Source: an archaeon | Lineage (GTDB): Archaea; Nanobdellota; Nanobdellia; Woesearchaeales; GCA-2686295 | Assembly: GCA_043822105.1 (NCBI GenBank) | Contig: JBDRCD010000015.1 | Span: forward strand, 16,443 to 80,442 | DNA length: 64,000 nt | Reading direction: 5' to 3' | In this document: positions 42,001 through 51,000 of the stretch, in pieces | Layout of the letters: each line of letters begins with the position of its first letter | Position numbering within the stretch: position 1 is the first letter of the stretch | Program-made: the position numbers

Positions 42001-45000
42001 GTTGCCAATTGATTTTCCATATATGACCATGTCTGGTTGAACACCATATTTCTCATAGGCTCCACCCACGTTTATTCTAAATCCAGATGTTATTTCATCA
42101 AAAATAAGAATGATACCTTTTTCTTTTGTAATCTTTCTTATTTCTTCTAAGAATCCTTTCTTTGGTTCTTTGTATCTTATTGGTTCCATTATCACAGTGC
42201 CGACATCATTATTTTTATCAAGAATTTTTTTAAGAGCATCAAGGTCATTGTATTCAAAAGGAATTGATGATCCTTTTAGATTTCTTGGAACTCCTTTTGG
42301 TTCAAGTCCGGGTAATAAATGTCCATCTAAATTTTTATCATCACCTAGATTCGCAGACAAATACCAATCACTCCAACCATGATAACCGCAGAATGCCACT
42401 TTATCTTTATTTGTGAATGCTCTTGCAATTCTAATTGCGACTGCAACAGCCTCTCCGCCAGTCTTAGCATATCTGACCATTCCTGCCCAAGGGTGTAATT
42501 TCAAAAATATATTTGCTAATTCTATTTCTTCAGGACAGTTAAGAGTTGTCATGGTGCAATCATCAACAGCTTTTTTTACGGCTTTATTTACTTCTTCATC
42601 AGAATAGCCTAAAACGCAGGCTCCGACACCCATTATACTCATATCAATTAGTTTGTTTCCGTCAAGGTCTTCTATAATAACACCTTTGGCTTTCTTATAG
42701 TAGGATGGCCACTGATCTGGAAGAAACATCTCTGATCTTTTGGAGAGTAATTGTGATCCACCAGGAATTATCTTCTTTGCTTCATTCCATAGTTTAACAC
42801 CTTTTTTTGTATTCATTTCTTTTTCCTCTTTTTAAGCCATTTCATTATGGCTTCTATAATTATAAAATCCATTTCTTCGTCTATTTCAAAAGAATTATAC
42901 CTTTCAACTTCATAGGGAATTGTCTTATCATGATAGAATGTTTTTCTTTTTTTCATGCTGCTGACTTTGGAGATATACAACGTTCCTTCTGGAAAAAATG
43001 TGTCTGTCAAATCCTGTCTTCTTATGTGTGCAATTTGTTTACCCTTGTATGGAACTATAAATCCTTTTTTCTTAACAAACGCAAGCATTGGATTATATTG
43101 CTCTGCTTTTACAAACCCAACAATTGATTCTGCTTTCTTGTTATTATTAAGCATAATTATTGCTTTTTCTATATCTTTGGAAGTTGTCATGGGAGAAGTT
43201 CCTTCCAACATAACAATTAAATCATAGGTTTCTCCTTTCTTCTCAAAAAAGTTTATTGCGTGAAGTAAAACGTTTATTGATGAAGCTTTATCTGTTGCAA
43301 GCTTTGCAGGTCTCATAAAAGGCACTTCAGCACCCTGCTTCCTTGCAATTTCAGCAATTTTCTTGTCGTCTGTGGAAACAATAACTTTGTTAATAAGTTT
43401 GCAACCAAGGGCAGCCTTTATTGGATAGTCTATTAGGGGTCTTCCTAGTAATTTCTTAATATTTTTTCCAGGAAGGCCTTTAGAACCCCCTCTTGCCGGA
43501 ATAACTGCTATAATTTTCATGTTGCACCCCCTATAAGATATTGTCTGTTTATTTAAAAACTTAATGCTTATTATTAGAAACTTTTTTAAATTTGATAGAT
43601 TTCAAAAAATTATGTTAAGCTCAAGATTCCTTGACGATAAAAAGCCAGCTATTGCTTTATCTAATTCTCAATTAAAAAACAAAAAAATAGTTGAAAAGAA
43701 AATTACTGATGGTATTTATAAGTTTGAAAAAGTTAAATGTGCAATTTGTAAGAGCGAAAATTTCAAAACACTCTCAAAAAAAGATAGACACGGTTTATAC
43801 TCTTCTTTTGTTATTTGTAAAAATTGTGGTTTAATTCAGATTAATCCAAGAATGGACCAGAAGAGTTATAATAATTTTTATAATGATGAGTATAGAAAAG
43901 TCTATAGCGAAACTGGAAAACCTGCCGATAGATTCTTTCGAAATCAAAGATTCACAGGAAAACTTATCTATGATTTAATAAGATCCAAATCCAACAAAAA
44001 CATTAAAAATTTGTTTGTGGTTGAAGTTGGAACAGGTGCAGGGGGAATTCTCCAATATTTCAAGGAAAAAGGAAATCTTGTTTATGGTGTAGATTTGGGG
44101 ACGCAGTATATTTCTTTTGGAAAGAAAAAAGGATTAAATTTAGAAACCGGCACAATTAAAAATGTTCTTAAGCTAAATAAAAAAGCAGACATAATAATAT
44201 ATAGTCATGTTTTTGAACATATTCTTAATCCAATGGATGAATTGAAAGTGATTCGTAAATGTTTAAAGAAGAACGGTCTTCTTTACATTGAAGTTCCTGG
44301 TGTGAAAAATTTGTTGAATAGTTATGGCCAAGATTTTTTAAAGTATCTTCAGAACGCTCACACATACAACTTTTCTTTGACAACTCTTAATAATTGTTTG
44401 CAGCAGGAAGGATTTGAAATGCTTTATGGTGATGAATATATTAAATCAATATTCATAATTGGTAAAAAGAAAACAATTTACACAAATGATTATTTCAAAG
44501 CTTTGTCTTTTTTGAACTATTTAGAAGATTTAAGATTAAAAAGATTTAGTTTTCAGAAACTTAAATTGAAATTAAGAAGTCTTTTTATACAAACTTTGAA
44601 AAAAACAAAGACTTTTGAATTATTTGTTAGGATGTATAGAAAATTACACACTTAATTTTGTTCTTGTTTGTTTTTGAAAATTATTTTTTTTATGGACTGC
44701 ATCATTCGTTCAAGTTCTAAACCATCACATTTGTAGCAGTAAAGATCCAAGAATTCTTTCCTTTTTTCCTTTAATTCCTCGTTCTTCTTTTTGTCATACA
44801 AATAAATTTTCACTGCTGACAAAAGTTCCTCGCCAGTTTTAACTTTTATCACGCAATCACTTGTTTTATGAAAAACGCCTTCTTTATCGATTATTTTTTT
44901 AGGATATAACCCTATGAGAATAGTTGTTTTACCCATAATATTTGCTTCCCAAAGAGTTGTAGAAAAAACAGATATAAACAAATCACATTTATTTATTAAT

Positions 45001-48000: not shown

Positions 48001-51000
48001 AAAAACTATTCTAAAAACTATGACCTACAGTCTTTATCACAGAGGTCATGATGATTTTGGGTTACTTATTGATTCCAAAGGCAGATTTGCATTTGGTCAC
48101 GCCAGATTATCAATAATTGATCTTTCAAAAAATGGTCATCAACCAATGTCAGACAAAGAAAAAACAGTGTTTATATCTTTTAATGGTGAAATATATAATT
48201 TCATGGAAATTAAAAAAGAACTTGAAAATGAAGGATACAAATTCTTTTCTAAATGTGATACTGAAGTAATCATTAATGCTTACAAAAAATGGGGGATTGA
48301 CTGTATTAAGAAATTCAATGGAATGTTTGCATTTTCATTGTACGATTTGAATCAAGAAAAACTATATTTGGTTAGAGATCGTCTCGGAATAAAACCGTTG
48401 TATTACACTTATTTCAAAGATAAATCCATGTCTTTTGATGGAATGATTTTTGCTTCAGAAATAAAATCCATACTTCATTTTCCTAATTTCGAAAGGGAAG
48501 TTAACATGGAAGGGGTGTCAAGCTATCTTTCTTTTCGTTATACCATTGGCGAAGAAACACTTTTCAAAAACATATTTTCTTTGAGTCCTGGTTTTTATCT
48601 GTCAATTGATAAAAAAGGTACAGTTGATAAGATTAAGTACTGGGACCTTTCTGTCAGTAAAAAAAAATTATCTGAAAAAAGGCTGGTGGAAGAAACCAGA
48701 AGATTGATGATTGATTCTGTTGAAAAAAGAATGATTAGTGATGTTCCTCTAGGCTCCTACTTGAGTGGGGGTCTTGATTCCAGTATAATTGTGGGTATAA
48801 TGTCTAAATTAAAAAAAGGAAAAGTAAAAACCTTTTCAATTGGATTTGAGGAAGAAAAGTATAATGAATTCAAATATGCTGAACTGGTTGCAAAGAAATT
48901 TAAAACTGATCACCATGAAATTCTTTTATCTCCGAATGAATATTTAAAGACTGTTAAAGATTTAATAAAATACAAAGATCTTCCTTTGGCGGTTCCAAAT
49001 GAAGCGGCATTATTTATTCTTTCAAAAGAACTTAAAAAGCAAATCACAGTAGTTTTGAGTGGAGAGGGTGCAGATGAAATATTTTCTGGTTATGGGAGAC
49101 TGTTTCGGGCTCCTGCAGACTACAAAAAATTAAAATTAATCAGATTTTTACCTTCTTTTGTAGTAGATAGACTTTTTTCAAATTTTAAAAGAAAATATGG
49201 AAATCAAAATTTCAGAAGCGAGCTTGACCACTTTTTGTATCTATATTCATATTTTCCAGAAAAAGAAAAGTTCTTTTTGTTCAATGATGAAATGAAATTA
49301 GCTGTTAACAACGACGGTTTGATAAAAAAAATATTTGGGCAGACATTTGAGAATTATAAACAATTGAATTATTATGATAAAATTCCTTTTGTTTTTGAAA
49401 AGTTGCATTTGCCTGGTCTGCTCTTCAGAAGTGATTCATCAACGATGGCTGCCAATGTTGAAGCGAGAGTTCCTTTTGTTGACCACAGATTAGTTGAATT
49501 TGCGTTGAACATTCCTAGAAAGTACAAGATGAAATGGAACTCTTTTGGAAGTTATCTCAAATCAATGTTTAAAACCAGCGACGAAATAAGTGAACATCTT
49601 GATTCGACCAAGAGCATATTAAGATTTGCCTTTAAAGACATGCTACCAAAAGAAGTTTTGGAAAGAAAAAAAGTAGGATTTCCTGTTCCTTTGGACAATT
49701 GGTTCAGGAATGACTTTAAATTAACCGCAAGAAAAGAATTATTAGGAAAAGATTCAAAAATAAGAATGTTTATTAATCAAGCAAACTTACAAAAATGGAT
49801 TGACCATAACTATTTGAATCCAAACAATGATAAACAATTTGGCCAAAAACTTTGGATGATTTTCAATTTAGAAATTTGGCTGAGGGAGTATTTTTAAAAT
49901 GAAAGCAAAAAAAGACAAAGTCATTGGTTACACTGCAGGAGTATATGACCTATTTCATGTTGGTCATTTGAATATATTAAAAAGCTCTAAAGCACTATGT
50001 GATAAGCTCATTGTTGGTGTAACAACCGATGAACTTGTATCCTATAAAGCCAAAACAGCTATAATTCCCTTTGAAGAAAGAGCAAGAATAGTAAGTGCAA
50101 TAAAATACGTTGATGTGGTTGTACCTCAGGAAAATATGAACAAGTTTGAAGCTTGGAAAAAATTAAAGTTTAATGTTATGTTTGTTGGTGATGATTGGTA
50201 TAAAGATTCTAAATGGAAGAAATATGAAAGAGAATTTAAAAAAGTAGGTGTTAAAATAGTATATTTTCCCTACACAAAAGGAACTTCTTCCACTTTGATG
50301 AATGAAATTCTGACCAGAGAAAGAGATTTGCTGTCAAAATTTGTTGACTATGGCAAAAACAATAAATTAAAATCACTTGTGAAGAAATTGGTTGTACAAA
50401 GGGAAAAAATAAAAGCCAAATATAAGAACAATGAACAAAAAAAGAAAAAGAAATAGTGGTTTAAAATCTCCGGAAGCATCAATCATAATTCTTAACTGGA
50501 ATCAACCTAACTTTTCAGTTTCCTGTGTTAAATCTGTTCTCAAGGAAAAAGGAAGCTATGAGATACTTTTGGTTGATAATAATTCCAAAGATGATTCTGT
50601 GAATGTTTTCAAGAAAGAATTTGGAAACAATGGTAAAGTAAAGATTATTGTCTCAGATAAAAATTTAGGTTATGCGGGAGGAAATAATCTTGGAGTTAAA
50701 CATTCAAAAGGAGAATTTGTAATTATTCTGAACAATGATACTACGGTTGAGAAAGGATGGTTCAATGAACTACTGAAAACAATTAAGAGCAGCAAGGAAA
50801 TCGGTGCTGTAAACGCCTATGAAATAAGAAATGGTAAAAAACCCGATTCAAAAGTGAGATCCCATTATAAAGCGAGGTTAAATGTTTTACAATATGGTGT
50901 TATCATAAAAAGAAAAACACCTCTCAAAAATATTGATGTTGTAAAATCCATAGGTGTTAAAGGTGCTTGTTTTATATACAGAAAAAAAATTCAGAATCCG

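Follow-up and report, generated by a model that had tools for sequence, protein, structure and literature searches.

Candidate genes for nonulosonic-acid transfer and CDP-dependent phospho-substitution in an archaeal surface-glycan cluster

Genes that recall the bacterial teichoic-acid pathway are present in an archaeon, raising the question of whether their products polymerise polyol phosphates or decorate a glycan. The region concerned (44652-50456) lies inside a surface-glycan biosynthesis cluster of about 30 kb, located at about 32.5-63.6 kb of the window, the whole stretch of 64,000 nucleotides that was analysed. The product of the cluster is probably an N-glycan or S-layer glycan. The host is an uncultured archaeon, probably of DPANN type; its archaeal nature is supported by genes in the window for a proteasome-activating-nucleotidase-like AAA ATPase, FEN-1 and an archaeal-type PEP carboxylase. 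The observations described below concern the genes and motifs present in the region, the protein fold, the ranking of homologues and the conservation of gene neighbourhoods. An earlier note on this DNA had proposed teichoic-acid-like machinery, and the genes and motifs that it named are real: the open reading frames of the region and that at 54632-55288 were all at the same coordinates, and the HP and HxGH motifs were found again. Homologues of teichoic-acid genes in archaea were already noted in 2010 for Methanobrevibacter ruminantium (PMC2812497).

Organization of the gene cluster

Two decoration modules, one for nonulosonic acid and one for a phospho-substituent, meet in the region. The operon for nonulosonic acid (NulO) biosynthesis and activation (36366-43520, minus strand), identified by Pfam and NCBIfam scans, includes in this order a NUDIX GDP-sugar hydrolase-like gene, Gmd (560 bits, above the cut-off of 415), a DegT aminotransferase, a NeuD/PglB/VioB acetyltransferase, NeuB (PF03102, 261 bits), a PtmA-like SDR, a class-III aminotransferase and a NeuA/PseF-like CMP-transferase (CTP_transf_3, 110 bits). 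It is followed by genes for a 363-aa SAM methyltransferase (Methyltransf_23; 43564-44655, plus strand), a gene similar to which is flanked by those for GT-B and NeuA in locus L002, and for the 534-aa HP-motif GT-B protein, a putative CMP-nonulosonate transferase (44652-46256, minus strand). The next gene, for a 266-aa SAM methyltransferase (Methyltransf_11, PF08241, 77 bits; 46308-47108, minus strand), overlaps by 11 nt the upstream gene for a 257-aa variant CDP-alcohol phosphotransferase-like membrane protein (47098-47871, minus strand); a methyltransferase 35% identical to the 266-aa one is encoded ahead of a cytidylyltransferase in L019.

On the plus strand, the stop codon of the gene for a 651-aa glutamine-dependent AsnB-family amidotransferase (47942-49897) is 1 nt ahead of the start of the gene for a 185-aa COG0615/PF01467 cytidylyltransferase (49899-50456). 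Both belong to one operon with the overlapping genes for a GT2 glycosyltransferase (50431-51450, plus strand) and a methyltransferase (51447-52310, plus strand), each assigned by profile match. Two methyltransferases were previously placed within the region, but only that at 46308-47108 is inside it; two others, at 43564-44655 and 51447-52310, are at its flanks. The GT2 gene has orthologues (49-58% identity) in L002, L003, L006 and L007, where they adjoin the canonical CDP-alcohol phosphotransferase or a cytidylyltransferase. Profile matches further identified a GT4 glycosyltransferase and a sugar-nucleotide enzyme (52311-54470, minus strand). The latter (53451-54470), formerly described as CDP-paratose-2-epimerase-like, qualifies only as an NDP-sugar epimerase/dehydratase of generic type; it matched dTDP-glucose dehydratase and GalE best, with scores under the cut-offs in both cases. 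The gene for a 218-aa canonical CDP-alcohol phosphotransferase (54632-55288, plus strand) is followed by other modules belonging to the glycan cluster, GT4, HldE, GmhA and a GT9 heptosyltransferase (55269-59598, minus strand); this GT4 gene converges on and overlaps the phosphotransferase gene, as is also the case in L008 and L009.

The 534-aa GT-B protein

The 534-aa protein carries its HP motif at H384-P385 (KPHPLEK) and a conserved H276-G277, and its AF2 model (pLDDT 93) shows the GT-B fold. Its family, with 187 representatives at E<1e-30, is uncharacterised. The best named match is NF046086 (BFO_1060 family), the model of the Tannerella forsythia Pse/Leg transferase, with 82 bits (E=4e-23), a score below the cut-off of 200 bits and covering the C-terminal, nucleotide-binding half only; the same model matched the C-terminal half of all relatives scanned (51/51). 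Among the relatives, the polysialyltransferase model gave a better E-value (4.8e-14) than the TagF model (1.9e-8). For the N-terminal acceptor half there is no named relative, and the sialyltransferase D/E-D/E-G motif is missing from it. NeuB and/or NeuA is located 1-8 kb from the GT-B gene in 6 of the 6 independent loci (the window, L001, L002, L003, L004=L021 and L005), which belong to an unassigned archaeon, to Woesearchaeota and Methanosarcinales, and to a spirochaete. Moreover, the protein is the sole HP-motif enzyme among the annotated cluster genes, the other glycosyltransferases being of GT2, GT4 and GT9. With the NF046086 match and the NeuA/NeuB neighbourhood so constant, transfer of nonulosonic acid, which the earlier note gave as its second choice, is the better-supported role, and the protein is most likely a nonulosonic-acid transferase. 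KpsS/KpsC, considered before as a competing family, gave only weak matches, in 15 of the 51 relatives.

The closest known proteins, Tanf_01245 and TFUB4_00887 of T. forsythia (BFO_1060 family), were identified by genetics as transferases of pseudaminic or legionaminic acid derivatives (PMC5420450). They share with the 534-aa protein the GT-B type, the HP motif, the conserved C-terminal CMP-binding half and a gene position beside the genes for CMP-nonulosonate biosynthesis and close to a methyltransferase. The match is, however, limited to the C-terminal 170 residues or so; the archaeal family is about 90 residues longer, and its N-terminal half differs, being without a conserved DXD or D/E-D/E-G and with the His-Gly instead.

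Another reading, which we consider rather unlikely, is that the cytidylyltransferase forms CDP-glycerol or another CDP-polyol and the 534-aa protein is a TagF/TarL-like enzyme appending or polymerising polyol phosphate on the surface. The protein aligned with PF04464 proteins (hhalign 97.4% probability, E=1.3e-11), its conserved His-Gly being at the position of the TagF-like WHG catalytic motif, but it gave no match to Pfam PF04464 (TagF/TagB) and the homology is confined to the C-terminal nucleotide-binding half, the N-domain remaining unaligned. Its gene has the same direction as the 257-aa phosphotransferase gene, probably shares its transcript, and is located 1.7 kb from the AsnB-cytidylyltransferase pair, making a link to the CDP-donor module conceivable. 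In bacteria, orthologues of the cytidylyltransferase generally occur with a TagF-like GT-B partner and adjoin PF04464 enzymes in 6 loci, and a methyltransferase-GT-B fusion with a 31% identical C-domain is encoded in L009, a cytidylyltransferase/CDP-alcohol phosphotransferase locus without NeuB. In contrast, NeuA/NeuB stay neighbours of the GT-B family even in 2 of the 6 loci where no COG0615 cytidylyltransferase is nearby, L001 (with 10 kb covered to either side) and L005, a short contig. The polyol-phosphate reading also leaves the cluster without a nonulosonate transferase, yet with two other candidate phosphotransferases. As in the TagD/TagF (TarL) systems of Bacillus and Staphylococcus, the CDP-activated donor would be supplied by a PF01467 HxGH cytidylyltransferase, whereas the window has CDP-alcohol phosphotransferase-family proteins in place of primer enzymes, a polymerase pair and an ABC exporter; the annotated genes of the cluster, those from 32.5 kb on, include neither a TagA/TagB/TagO-type primer set nor a TagGH-type ABC exporter. 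With the PF04464 match absent, the TagD equivalog cut-off missed and no sign of polymerisation or of a teichoic acid polymerase in the analysed cluster genes, the proposed polymerising machinery was not upheld.

It is very improbable that the 534-aa protein is instead a NeuC/LegG-type hydrolysing NDP-sugar 2-epimerase, the enzyme that seems to be missing from the nonulosonate pathway of the window. None of the other genes in the window was found to encode an Epimerase_2, 49 of the 51 relatives matched PF02350, and the alignment with real epimerases reached 97.0% probability in hhalign. The protein itself, however, scored 22.7 bits with PF02350 (threshold 30.6) and has 150-200 extra N-terminal residues. 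The catalytic acids of epimerases (GDT Asp, vEAGlR Glu, PEE.NR Glu) are not conserved in the family, Pro or Gln being at the epimerase Glu position, followed by the family's His-Gly. Locus L001 encodes the GT-B protein plus a separate NeuB-Epimerase_2 fusion, and the pathway of the window starts with a true GDP-mannose 4,6-dehydratase and the NUDIX GDP-sugar hydrolase-like gene, a route that would need no 2-epimerase.

The cytidylyltransferase and its AsnB partner

The cytidylyltransferase (PF01467, 74.5 bits) has the HVGH motif and a Lys-rich tail (NEQKKKKK). Its earlier designation as TagD-like stands as regards the superfamily and the glycan-cluster setting, but it is not a TagD equivalog, with 88 bits against the equivalog cut-off of 165 and 36% identity to B. 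subtilis TagD; its family differs from TagD by a YxxxKW insert and by YTKGTSST replacing RTEGISTT. The sole FAD-synthetase match (17.5 bits) argues against the clustering with RibL that had been raised. More than 8000 homologues were found, and identity to bacterial orthologues across phyla is 60-76%. The orthologues occur in O-antigen, EPS and pgl-type clusters, among others; the neighbouring transferase is PF04464, a CDP-alcohol phosphotransferase or LicD.

The AsnB protein (TIGR01536, 477 bits, cut-off 267) retains the N-terminal Cys (MCGITG) and the SGGLDS loop. An AsnB-like gene adjoins the cytidylyltransferase orthologue in 9 of the 12 contexts with enough sequence to judge (see loci L010, L011, L012, L013, L017, L018, L020 and L022). 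That this partner is conserved makes a substrate with a carboxyl group more likely than a simple polyol, and the predicted product is a CDP-activated three-carbon phospho-compound. Both 2-phosphoglyceric acid and glyceramide 2-phosphate are known as glycan substituents.

The same AsnB-then-cytidylyltransferase order, with overlapping genes and a 60% identical cytidylyltransferase (WP_053880134), is present in the glycan cluster of E. coli O82 (NCTC9082), which, like the cluster of the window, depends on Wzx. The O82 cluster consists of these two genes, a TagF-like gene, wzx, wzy and three glycosyltransferases, all with predicted functions. The transferase there is TagF-like (PF04464) and not a CDP-alcohol phosphotransferase, and the AsnB proteins are only 29% identical. 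The O82 side group was reportedly described by Vilchez et al. in 2009 as D-glycerate 2-phosphate on Glc O6. On that description O82 carries the acid and not the amide, leaving its AsnB unexplained. Based on the conserved AsnB partner and the O82 parallel, the compound activated would by analogy most likely be 2-phosphoglycerate, with glycerol phosphate as fallback; the latter, counter to glycerate, is indicated in L018, where AsnB has a glycerophosphodiesterase gene upstream of it. The existence of CDP-glycerate as a metabolite is proven: in Caulobacter it is made by the CTP:phosphoglycerate cytidylyltransferase CpgD and donates phosphoglycerate to a surface molecule (PMC12275187). CpgD belongs to the COG1213 nucleotidyltransferases and has no relationship to the COG0615 enzyme of the window, and the likeness is in the proposed chemistry only.

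CDP-alcohol phosphotransferases and glycan decoration

The 218-aa protein is, as claimed before, motif-perfect, with a complete D-x2-DG-x2-AR-x8-G-x3-D-x3-D motif (PF01066, 54.7 bits), and is predicted to transfer the CDP-activated phospho-group. The 257-aa protein keeps the family signature (DWVDGTVAR), but not the canonical set of catalytic Asp residues, the third being replaced by His (conserved Tyr-His) and the fourth by Thr/Leu, and its PF01066 score (20.1 bits) is below the threshold of 22. This YH variant is conserved in four lineages (also in L004/L021, L008 and L009); it occurs together with the canonical enzyme in the window, L008 and L009, and its gene is divergent from AsnB in L004/L021 as in the window. 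Orthologues of the 218-aa protein adjoin COG0615 cytidylyltransferases in L002, L003, L008 and L009. Since cytidylyltransferase and phosphotransferase-family genes are conserved together in other loci, the suggestion that CDP-activated groups are appended as phospho-substituents is reasonable.

Neighbours of the 218-aa orthologues include a Fom1-like cytidylyltransferase-PEP-mutase fusion and a phosphonate importer, for in L008 the orthologue immediately follows Fom1/Fom2/FomC-like genes, and in L009 it is next to the importer. In the Fom1/CMP-hydroxyethylphosphonate pathway of phosphonate tailoring (PMC6697681), a PF01467 cytidylyltransferase likewise makes a CMP/CDP conjugate of a small P-compound, and the window enzyme matched PDB 5x3d (E=1.6e-13). 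In contrast to that pathway, PEP mutase, decarboxylase and phosphonate transporter were not found in the window, and the cytidylyltransferases of L008 and L009 share only 31-33% identity with that of the window.

Alternatively, the cytidylyltransferase and the CDP-alcohol phosphotransferases could make a lipid head group (Kennedy-like) or an archaetidylinositol-phosphate-like lipid and be merely located in the glycan cluster, which we regard as quite improbable. The Kennedy pair (ethanolamine-phosphate cytidylyltransferase and CDP-ethanolamine phosphotransferase) and archaeal IPCT/DIPPS follow the same logic, a soluble enzyme forming the CDP-alcohol and a six-helix DxxDGxxAR...GxxxDxxxD membrane enzyme passing the phospho-alcohol to an acceptor hydroxyl; the window differs from them by its glycan cluster, the extra His-variant paralogue and the AsnB partner. 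The CDP-alcohol phosphotransferases characterised so far all produce, to our knowledge, lipids or compatible solutes, and we know of no member of the family that acts on a glycan. Of the proteins with solved structures, the human ethanolamine-phosphate enzyme matches the cytidylyltransferase best, and a Borg preprint read a similar cytidylyltransferase and CDP-alcohol phosphotransferase pair as phospholipid metabolism. Archaetidylinositol phosphate synthase is the best named match of both membrane proteins, but with 68 and 43 bits, far under the equivalog cut-off of 180. Furthermore, the genes are embedded in glycosyltransferase operons, overlapping GT4 and adjoining GT2 likewise in several loci, in agreement with the glycan clusters in which the cytidylyltransferase orthologues occur.

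For the decoration of a glycan, we infer all substrates, including the donor, as well as the acceptor and the order of steps. The NeuB/NeuA operon would make a CMP-activated nonulosonic acid, the donor for the 534-aa GT-B protein, which would transfer it to a lipid-linked glycan, the HP motif binding the CMP phosphate and His276 being the likely catalytic base. The AsnB-cytidylyltransferase operon would activate a small phospho-compound with CTP, converting 2-phosphoglycerate to CDP-glycerate, which AsnB may amidate to the glyceramide form. The canonical 218-aa and His-variant 257-aa proteins, possibly jointly, would pass the phospho-group to a hydroxyl of the membrane-bound glycan with release of CMP, and the adjacent methyltransferases may add methyl groups. 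On balance, though by no wide measure of confidence, we favour the view that this archaeon decorates its surface glycan with a nonulosonic acid and a CDP-activated phospho-substituent without polymerisation.

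Organization of the surface-glycan cluster

An ORF and motif check of the window confirmed the named genes at their positions together with their motifs. The minus strand carries the genes for the 534-residue GT-B protein (44652-46256; HP motif in KPHPLEK), a SAM methyltransferase (46308-47108; PF08241, 77 bits) and a 257-residue membrane protein (47098-47871; DWVDGTVAR), and the plus strand those for a glutamine-dependent AsnB-type amidotransferase (47942-49897; TIGR01536, 477 bits; N-terminal Cys in MCGITG, PP-loop SGGLDS), a 185-residue PF01467 cytidylyltransferase (49899-50456; HVGH and a Lys-rich tail) and a 218-residue CDP-alcohol phosphotransferase with a complete motif (54632-55288). 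The minus-strand order is 257-residue protein, methyltransferase (11-nt overlap) and GT-B protein, and the plus-strand order is AsnB, cytidylyltransferase (1-nt gap), GT2 (26-nt overlap) and methyltransferase; this tight spacing suggests two divergent operons. Only one of the two methyltransferases counted in the earlier note lies inside 44652-50456, and the gene it had described as CDP-paratose-2-epimerase-like is, by profile, a generic NDP-sugar epimerase/dehydratase.

These genes occupy the center of a glycan cluster spanning about 32.5 kb to 63.6 kb of the window. It is composed of genes for a UDP-sugar dehydrogenase, an epimerase and a Wzx-type flippase; the nonulosonic-acid (NulO) operon (NUDIX, Gmd, DegT, NeuD-like acetyltransferase, NeuB, PtmA-like SDR, class-III aminotransferase and NeuA); the genes at 44652-50456; GT2, GT4, the second CDP-alcohol phosphotransferase and another GT4; HldE, GmhA and a GT9 heptosyltransferase; and DUF2304, a GDSL esterase and a carbamoyltransferase. 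Archaeal markers in the window include a proteasome-activating-nucleotidase-like AAA ATPase, FEN-1, Trm5/TYW2 and an archaeal-type PEP carboxylase. The only rRNA or tRNA gene detected in the 64 kb is one for 5S rRNA (32320-32436, minus strand, 78 bits), directly upstream of the glycan cluster. ORFs of 491 and 471 residues (10836-13711, plus strand), sitting ahead of a GT2 gene, and of 330 residues (31300-32292, minus strand) gave no Pfam family, at E<=1e-5 for the former two and E<=1e-4 for the latter. At 56491-59598 (minus strand), this archaeon carries an ADP-heptose module of GmhA and bifunctional HldE (478 bits, with each of the two domain models above its cut-off), adjoining the GT9 heptosyltransferase gene; a GT9 gene is also present in the comparison loci L002, L011 and L012.

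The NulO pathway (36366-43520, minus strand) seems to begin with GDP-mannose. Ahead of NeuB, its operon encodes a true Gmd scoring above the cut-off (560 bits), a DegT aminotransferase, an acetyltransferase of the NeuD/PglB/VioB kind and a NUDIX protein similar to GDP-mannose mannosyl hydrolase, and no 2-epimerase gene was found in the window. As judged from these genes, the set suggests an epimerase-free route that would lead via N-acetylperosamine to a 5-hydroxy nonulosonate. Between NeuB and NeuA (40741-42816, minus strand) are located the PtmA-like SDR and a HemL-like class-III aminotransferase, both kept in L002, L004 and L006/L007, and in L003 the aminotransferase alone was found; the aminotransferase is fused to NeuA in L006/L007 (4757-6883) and L021 (12140-12624). 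This arrangement suggests that the CMP-linked sugar is oxidized and transaminated.

Role of the 534-residue GT-B protein

Among the lines of evidence on the role of the 534-residue protein, gene context decides best. NeuA and/or NeuB was detected 1-8 kb from a gene of this family in all six independent loci, namely the window, L001, L002, L003 (Woesearchaeota), L004=L021 (Methanosarcinales) and L005 (Spirochaetes), while a COG0615 cytidylyltransferase is present in only three of the six and an AsnB gene in two. L004 (a GTDB Methanosarcinales MAG) and L021 (an ENA metagenome contig) are different assemblies, counted as one locus because their AsnB proteins are identical and their 257-residue-type proteins are identical over the 251 residues compared. 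Since the other glycosyltransferases of the window cluster belong to GT2, GT4 and GT9, the 534-residue protein is the sole candidate for transfer of the CMP-activated sugar. Based on the constant NeuA/NeuB context, the less frequent cytidylyltransferase and the lack of another candidate transferase in the cluster, we consider this protein to be probably a NulO transferase, as the earlier note had proposed for its alternative; the profile ranking around the HP motif also favors this role.

In this ranking, NF046086, the model of the BFO_1060 family of Tannerella forsythia transferases, came first (82 bits, E=4e-23; 51 of 51 relatives, best E 2.3e-24), the match covering model positions 199-364 of 365, that is, the C-terminal nucleotide-binding half only, as in all 51 relatives, and staying below the cut-off of 200 bits set over the whole model. 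TIGR04396 followed (E=3e-13; 39 of 51 relatives, best E 5.8e-17), and Pfam Epimerase_2 (PF02350) gave 22.7 bits, below its threshold of 30.6 (49 of 51 relatives, best E 1.5e-15). The polysialyltransferase model (16 of 51 relatives, best E 4.8e-14) and Capsule_synth for KpsS/C (15 of 51, best E 4.9e-8) did not match the 534-residue protein itself. BFO_1060 is an allele of the T. forsythia transferase for pseudaminic/legionaminic-acid derivatives, the role of which was established by deletion, complementation and glycan mass spectrometry (PMC5420450), and among relatives studied by experiment, this NulO transferase is closest to the GT-B protein. The BFO_1060/Tanf_01245 transferases have DXD, D/E-D/E-G and HP motifs (PMC5420450), whereas the 534-residue family keeps HP only; no DXD or D/E-D/E-G column was detected among positions that are invariant or 90% conserved in the alignment of 51 sequences.

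A word-indexed search yielded only two relatives of about 35% identity, and an exhaustive profile search detected 187 representatives at E<1e-30 and 1278 at E<1e-10, mostly of 500-550 residues and aligning from end to end. The AlphaFold model built from the 51-sequence alignment (mean pLDDT 93.3) predicts a helical N-terminal region of about 100 residues followed by a GT-B fold, with the HP histidine in the C-terminal CDP/CMP-binding Rossmann half.

The live rival is a TagF-like transferase, for which the operon partner and fold similarity to TarL can be cited; against it, the TagF/TagB model Glyphos_transf (PF04464) gave no match with the 534-residue protein at E<=0.01 (17 of 51 relatives, best E 1.9e-8), and the N-domains do not align with those of TagF-like proteins. 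The near-invariant His276-Gly277 (xHGxG) of the family is in a topologically similar place to the WHG of TagF-like proteins, but both the Trp and the Lys-Lys of the TagF sequence WHGxPxKK are missing, and a His base at 276 is compatible with a TagF-like and a CstII-like mechanism alike. By profile-profile comparison, five real PF04464 proteins (97.4% probability, residues 290-527 only) and four real 2-epimerases (97.0%) scored alike, and thus fold and distant homology place the protein only in the GT-B clade with CMP/CDP/UDP-binding C-domains. Searches of PDB sequences with the family profiles detected epimerases and one glucosyltransferase only, with no TagF, polysialyltransferase or KpsC below E=0.9. 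The possibility of a 2-epimerase was rejected, because none of the epimerase catalytic acids (GDT Asp, vEAGlR Glu, PEE.NR Glu) is conserved in the family, which has Pro/Gln-His-Gly at the epimerase Glu position; moreover, L001 carries a separate NeuB-Epimerase_2 fusion besides its GT-B gene. NulO transfer is thus the preferred role of the 534-residue protein.

The cytidylyltransferase and its AsnB partner

The 185-residue protein matched PF01467 with 74.5 bits (cut-off 21), HVGH being residues 20-23, and belongs to the TagD/ECT/CCT superfamily. The best solved relative is human ethanolamine-phosphate cytidylyltransferase (5.6e-20), followed by TagD (7.8e-18), TarD (9.6e-17) and the cytidylyltransferase domain of Fom1 (1.6e-13). 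Assignment as a TagD equivalog was rejected (TIGR01518, 88 bits against a cut-off of 165.4; 36% identity to Bacillus subtilis TagD). The family keeps the equivalents of TagD Lys44 and Lys46, but the substrate/CTP loop RTEGISTT of TagD is replaced by YTKGTSST, and a conserved 7-residue insert (YxxxKW) follows GDDW, unlike in TagD. The archaeal FAD synthetase RibL was also rejected, the sole FAD-synthetase match being 17.5 bits as against 88 for TagD and 73 for RfaE domain II; by profile scores, the phospho-alcohol cytidylyltransferases are closer. More than 8000 homologues were detected, the closest being 64-76% identical and spread across bacterial phyla, and a metagenome scan gave only four contigs of 1.0-3.3 kb. 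Nearly all of the closest homologues (most of 137-160 residues, a few of 170-177) lack the Lys-rich C-terminal extension of about 45 residues (50320-50456), which may bind membrane or nucleic acid, and the consensus of the family alignment stops ahead of it.

The 651-residue AsnB-type protein exceeded the TIGR01536 cut-off (476.8 against 267.1 bits). Of the 12 contexts in which the sequence was long enough to tell, 9 have an AsnB-like gene adjoining the cytidylyltransferase orthologue. The gene orders include those of Clostridium cavendishii (L010; TagF-like, AsnB, cytidylyltransferase), Nitratifractor (L011; AsnB, cytidylyltransferase and CDP-alcohol phosphotransferase, upstream of pglB), the comparison loci L012 (AsnB, cytidylyltransferase), L017 (AsnB, cytidylyltransferase, TagF-like, methyltransferase) and L018 (GDPD, AsnB, cytidylyltransferase, TagF-like), an exopolysaccharide plasmid of L. 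plantarum (TagF-like, cytidylyltransferase, AsnB C-terminal domain) and E. coli O82 (NCTC9082; L020, 9475-13873; galF, AsnB, cytidylyltransferase, wzx, TagF-like, wzy, three glycosyltransferases, gnd). AsnB is absent from L019 (methyltransferase, cytidylyltransferase, TagF-like) and P. distasonis (cytidylyltransferase, LicD).

The O82 cluster is the closest gene-order parallel for the archaeal AsnB-cytidylyltransferase pair, and any non-sugar part of its O-unit must come from the three non-glycosyltransferase genes of the cluster. In 2009, Vilchez et al. reportedly described the O82 O-unit as bearing D-glyceric acid 2-phosphate on O6 of glucose, and the published unit is said to contain glyceric acid phosphate and no amide. 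Given the AsnB-family gene in the O82 cluster, the substituent may be amidated in vivo, or else AsnB has a different role there. Glyceric-acid phosphodiesters occur in E. coli O-antigens according to the literature, in which 2- and 3-phosphoglyceric acid are known as glycan substituents and D-glyceramide 2-phosphate is described for Providencia alcalifaciens O22. CDP-glycerate is a real metabolite, being the product of CpgD, an enzyme unrelated to the window cytidylyltransferase (PMC12275187).

The substrate of an AsnB enzyme must carry a carboxylate; phosphoglycerate has one, glycerol phosphate has none. By analogy to these systems, it is a fair possibility, if somewhat short of probable, that the cytidylyltransferase makes CDP-glycerate, which would then be amidated; the fallback is CDP-glycerol as the product, to which the GDPD gene of L018 points. 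In the literature searched, we found no function assigned to the AsnB-cytidylyltransferase pair and nothing relevant on CDP-glyceramide.

CDP-alcohol phosphotransferases and the decoration of surface glycans

Two CDP-alcohol phosphotransferases had been proposed for the region. The 218-residue protein agrees with this assignment (PF01066, 54.7 bits against a cut-off of 22), its motif D-x2-DG-x2-AR-x8-G-x3-D-x3-D being complete (DFSDGEVARLRNMQSEFGAWFDAFLD) and kept in its family, whereas the 257-residue protein falls below the Pfam threshold (20.1 against 22 bits), with the first and second catalytic Asp present, the third replaced by His and the fourth absent. The latter represents a subfamily that retains DxxDGxxAR and has a conserved Tyr-His in place of the third Asp in four lineages (the window, L004/L021, L008 and L009). 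This His-variant is found together with the canonical form in the window, L008 and L009, and its gene and AsnB form a divergent pair in the window and L004/L021.

Orthologues of the 218-residue protein, 40-61% identical, are located beside two COG0615 cytidylyltransferases and an MFS transporter (L002), beside a divergent cytidylyltransferase gene (L003), after the GT2 orthologue in a NulO cluster (L006/L007), after the Fom1, Fom2 and FomC counterparts, namely a cytidylyltransferase-PEP-mutase fusion, a TPP decarboxylase and an Fe-ADH, a Fom3-like B12-radical-SAM gene being close by (L008), and beside a cytidylyltransferase and a phosphonate-binding ABC importer (L009). The canonical and His-variant proteins thus look like general transferases of CMP/CDP-activated phospho- or phosphono-groups in archaeal surface-decoration clusters. 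A glycan acceptor is favored over a lipid because the overlap with a GT4 gene is conserved and GT2 is adjacent. A cytidylyltransferase/CDP-alcohol phosphotransferase neighborhood has been noted in Borg elements and was read there as lipid metabolism.

On the uncultured-organism contig L008 (2067-8645), the Fom1-, Fom2-, FomC- and Fom3-like genes are flanked by the His-variant and canonical phosphotransferases, which looks like an early fosfomycin-type pathway redirected to a hydroxyalkylphosphonate on a glycan or lipid. In L009 (Woesearchaeota, 1322-8642), the small COG0615 cytidylyltransferase adjoins the phosphonate-binding ABC importer, accompanied by two canonical CDP-alcohol phosphotransferase genes and a His-variant relative, and this suggests salvage of external phosphonate for surface decoration. 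L009 also encodes a methyltransferase-GT-B fusion, the GT-B domain of which is 31% identical to the C-half of the 534-residue protein. Coupling of CDP-alcohol phosphotransferases with phosphonate activation was not found in the literature searched. For the window itself, a phosphonate pathway was dropped, as neither PEP mutase nor importer was found there; MeOPN-type phosphoramidate chemistry was dropped, as the gene families differ; and nothing was found to support a phosphoethanolamine-to-phosphocholine route via the methyltransferases, which was likewise dropped.

The headline of the earlier note, teichoic-acid-like polymer machinery in an archaeon, was weakened: the tests for TagD and TagF membership failed, no sign of polymerization was detected, and we regard such machinery as unlikely. 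Its ideas of decoration and of a NulO transferase were retained, and the best description of the region is a pair of modules for decorating a surface glycan of an archaeon, made of variants of known enzyme kinds. In its predicted mode of action, the system resembles TagD-type activation followed by phosphodiester transfer. As an annotation, teichoic acid in an archaeon is not unprecedented, since homologues of teichoic-acid genes were described in M. ruminantium in 2010 (PMC2812497).

The following joint reading is put forward tentatively and, taken as a whole, is rather doubtful. A cross-domain module of AsnB-like protein, distinct COG0615 cytidylyltransferase and phosphotransferase would install glycerate- or glyceramide-phosphate on surface glycans; transfer in archaea would be carried out by membrane enzymes of the CDP-alcohol phosphotransferase family, including the His-variant subfamily, relatives of which would take CMP-phosphonates; and the neighboring GT-B family of about 190 representatives would be new NulO transferases common to archaea and bacteria. 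The two decoration modules of the window give no new principle. To our knowledge, studies of the CDP-alcohol phosphotransferase family have been confined to lipid and osmolyte synthesis; activity on a glycan, if true, would be the first such case for this family of lipid synthesis, widening its chemistry and linking it to phosphonate decoration. We know of few NulO transferases and of none characterized in archaea, and the GT-B family would, if the reading is true, be a candidate NulO transferase for archaea, spirochaetes and other uncultured lineages. The AsnB-cytidylyltransferase pair would explain how the phosphoglycerate or glyceramide-phosphate side groups of O-antigens and exopolysaccharides are made. 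Three uncharacterized and widespread families, the GT-B proteins, the AsnB-coupled cytidylyltransferases and the His-variant CDP-alcohol phosphotransferases, gain concrete, testable hypotheses on their functions.
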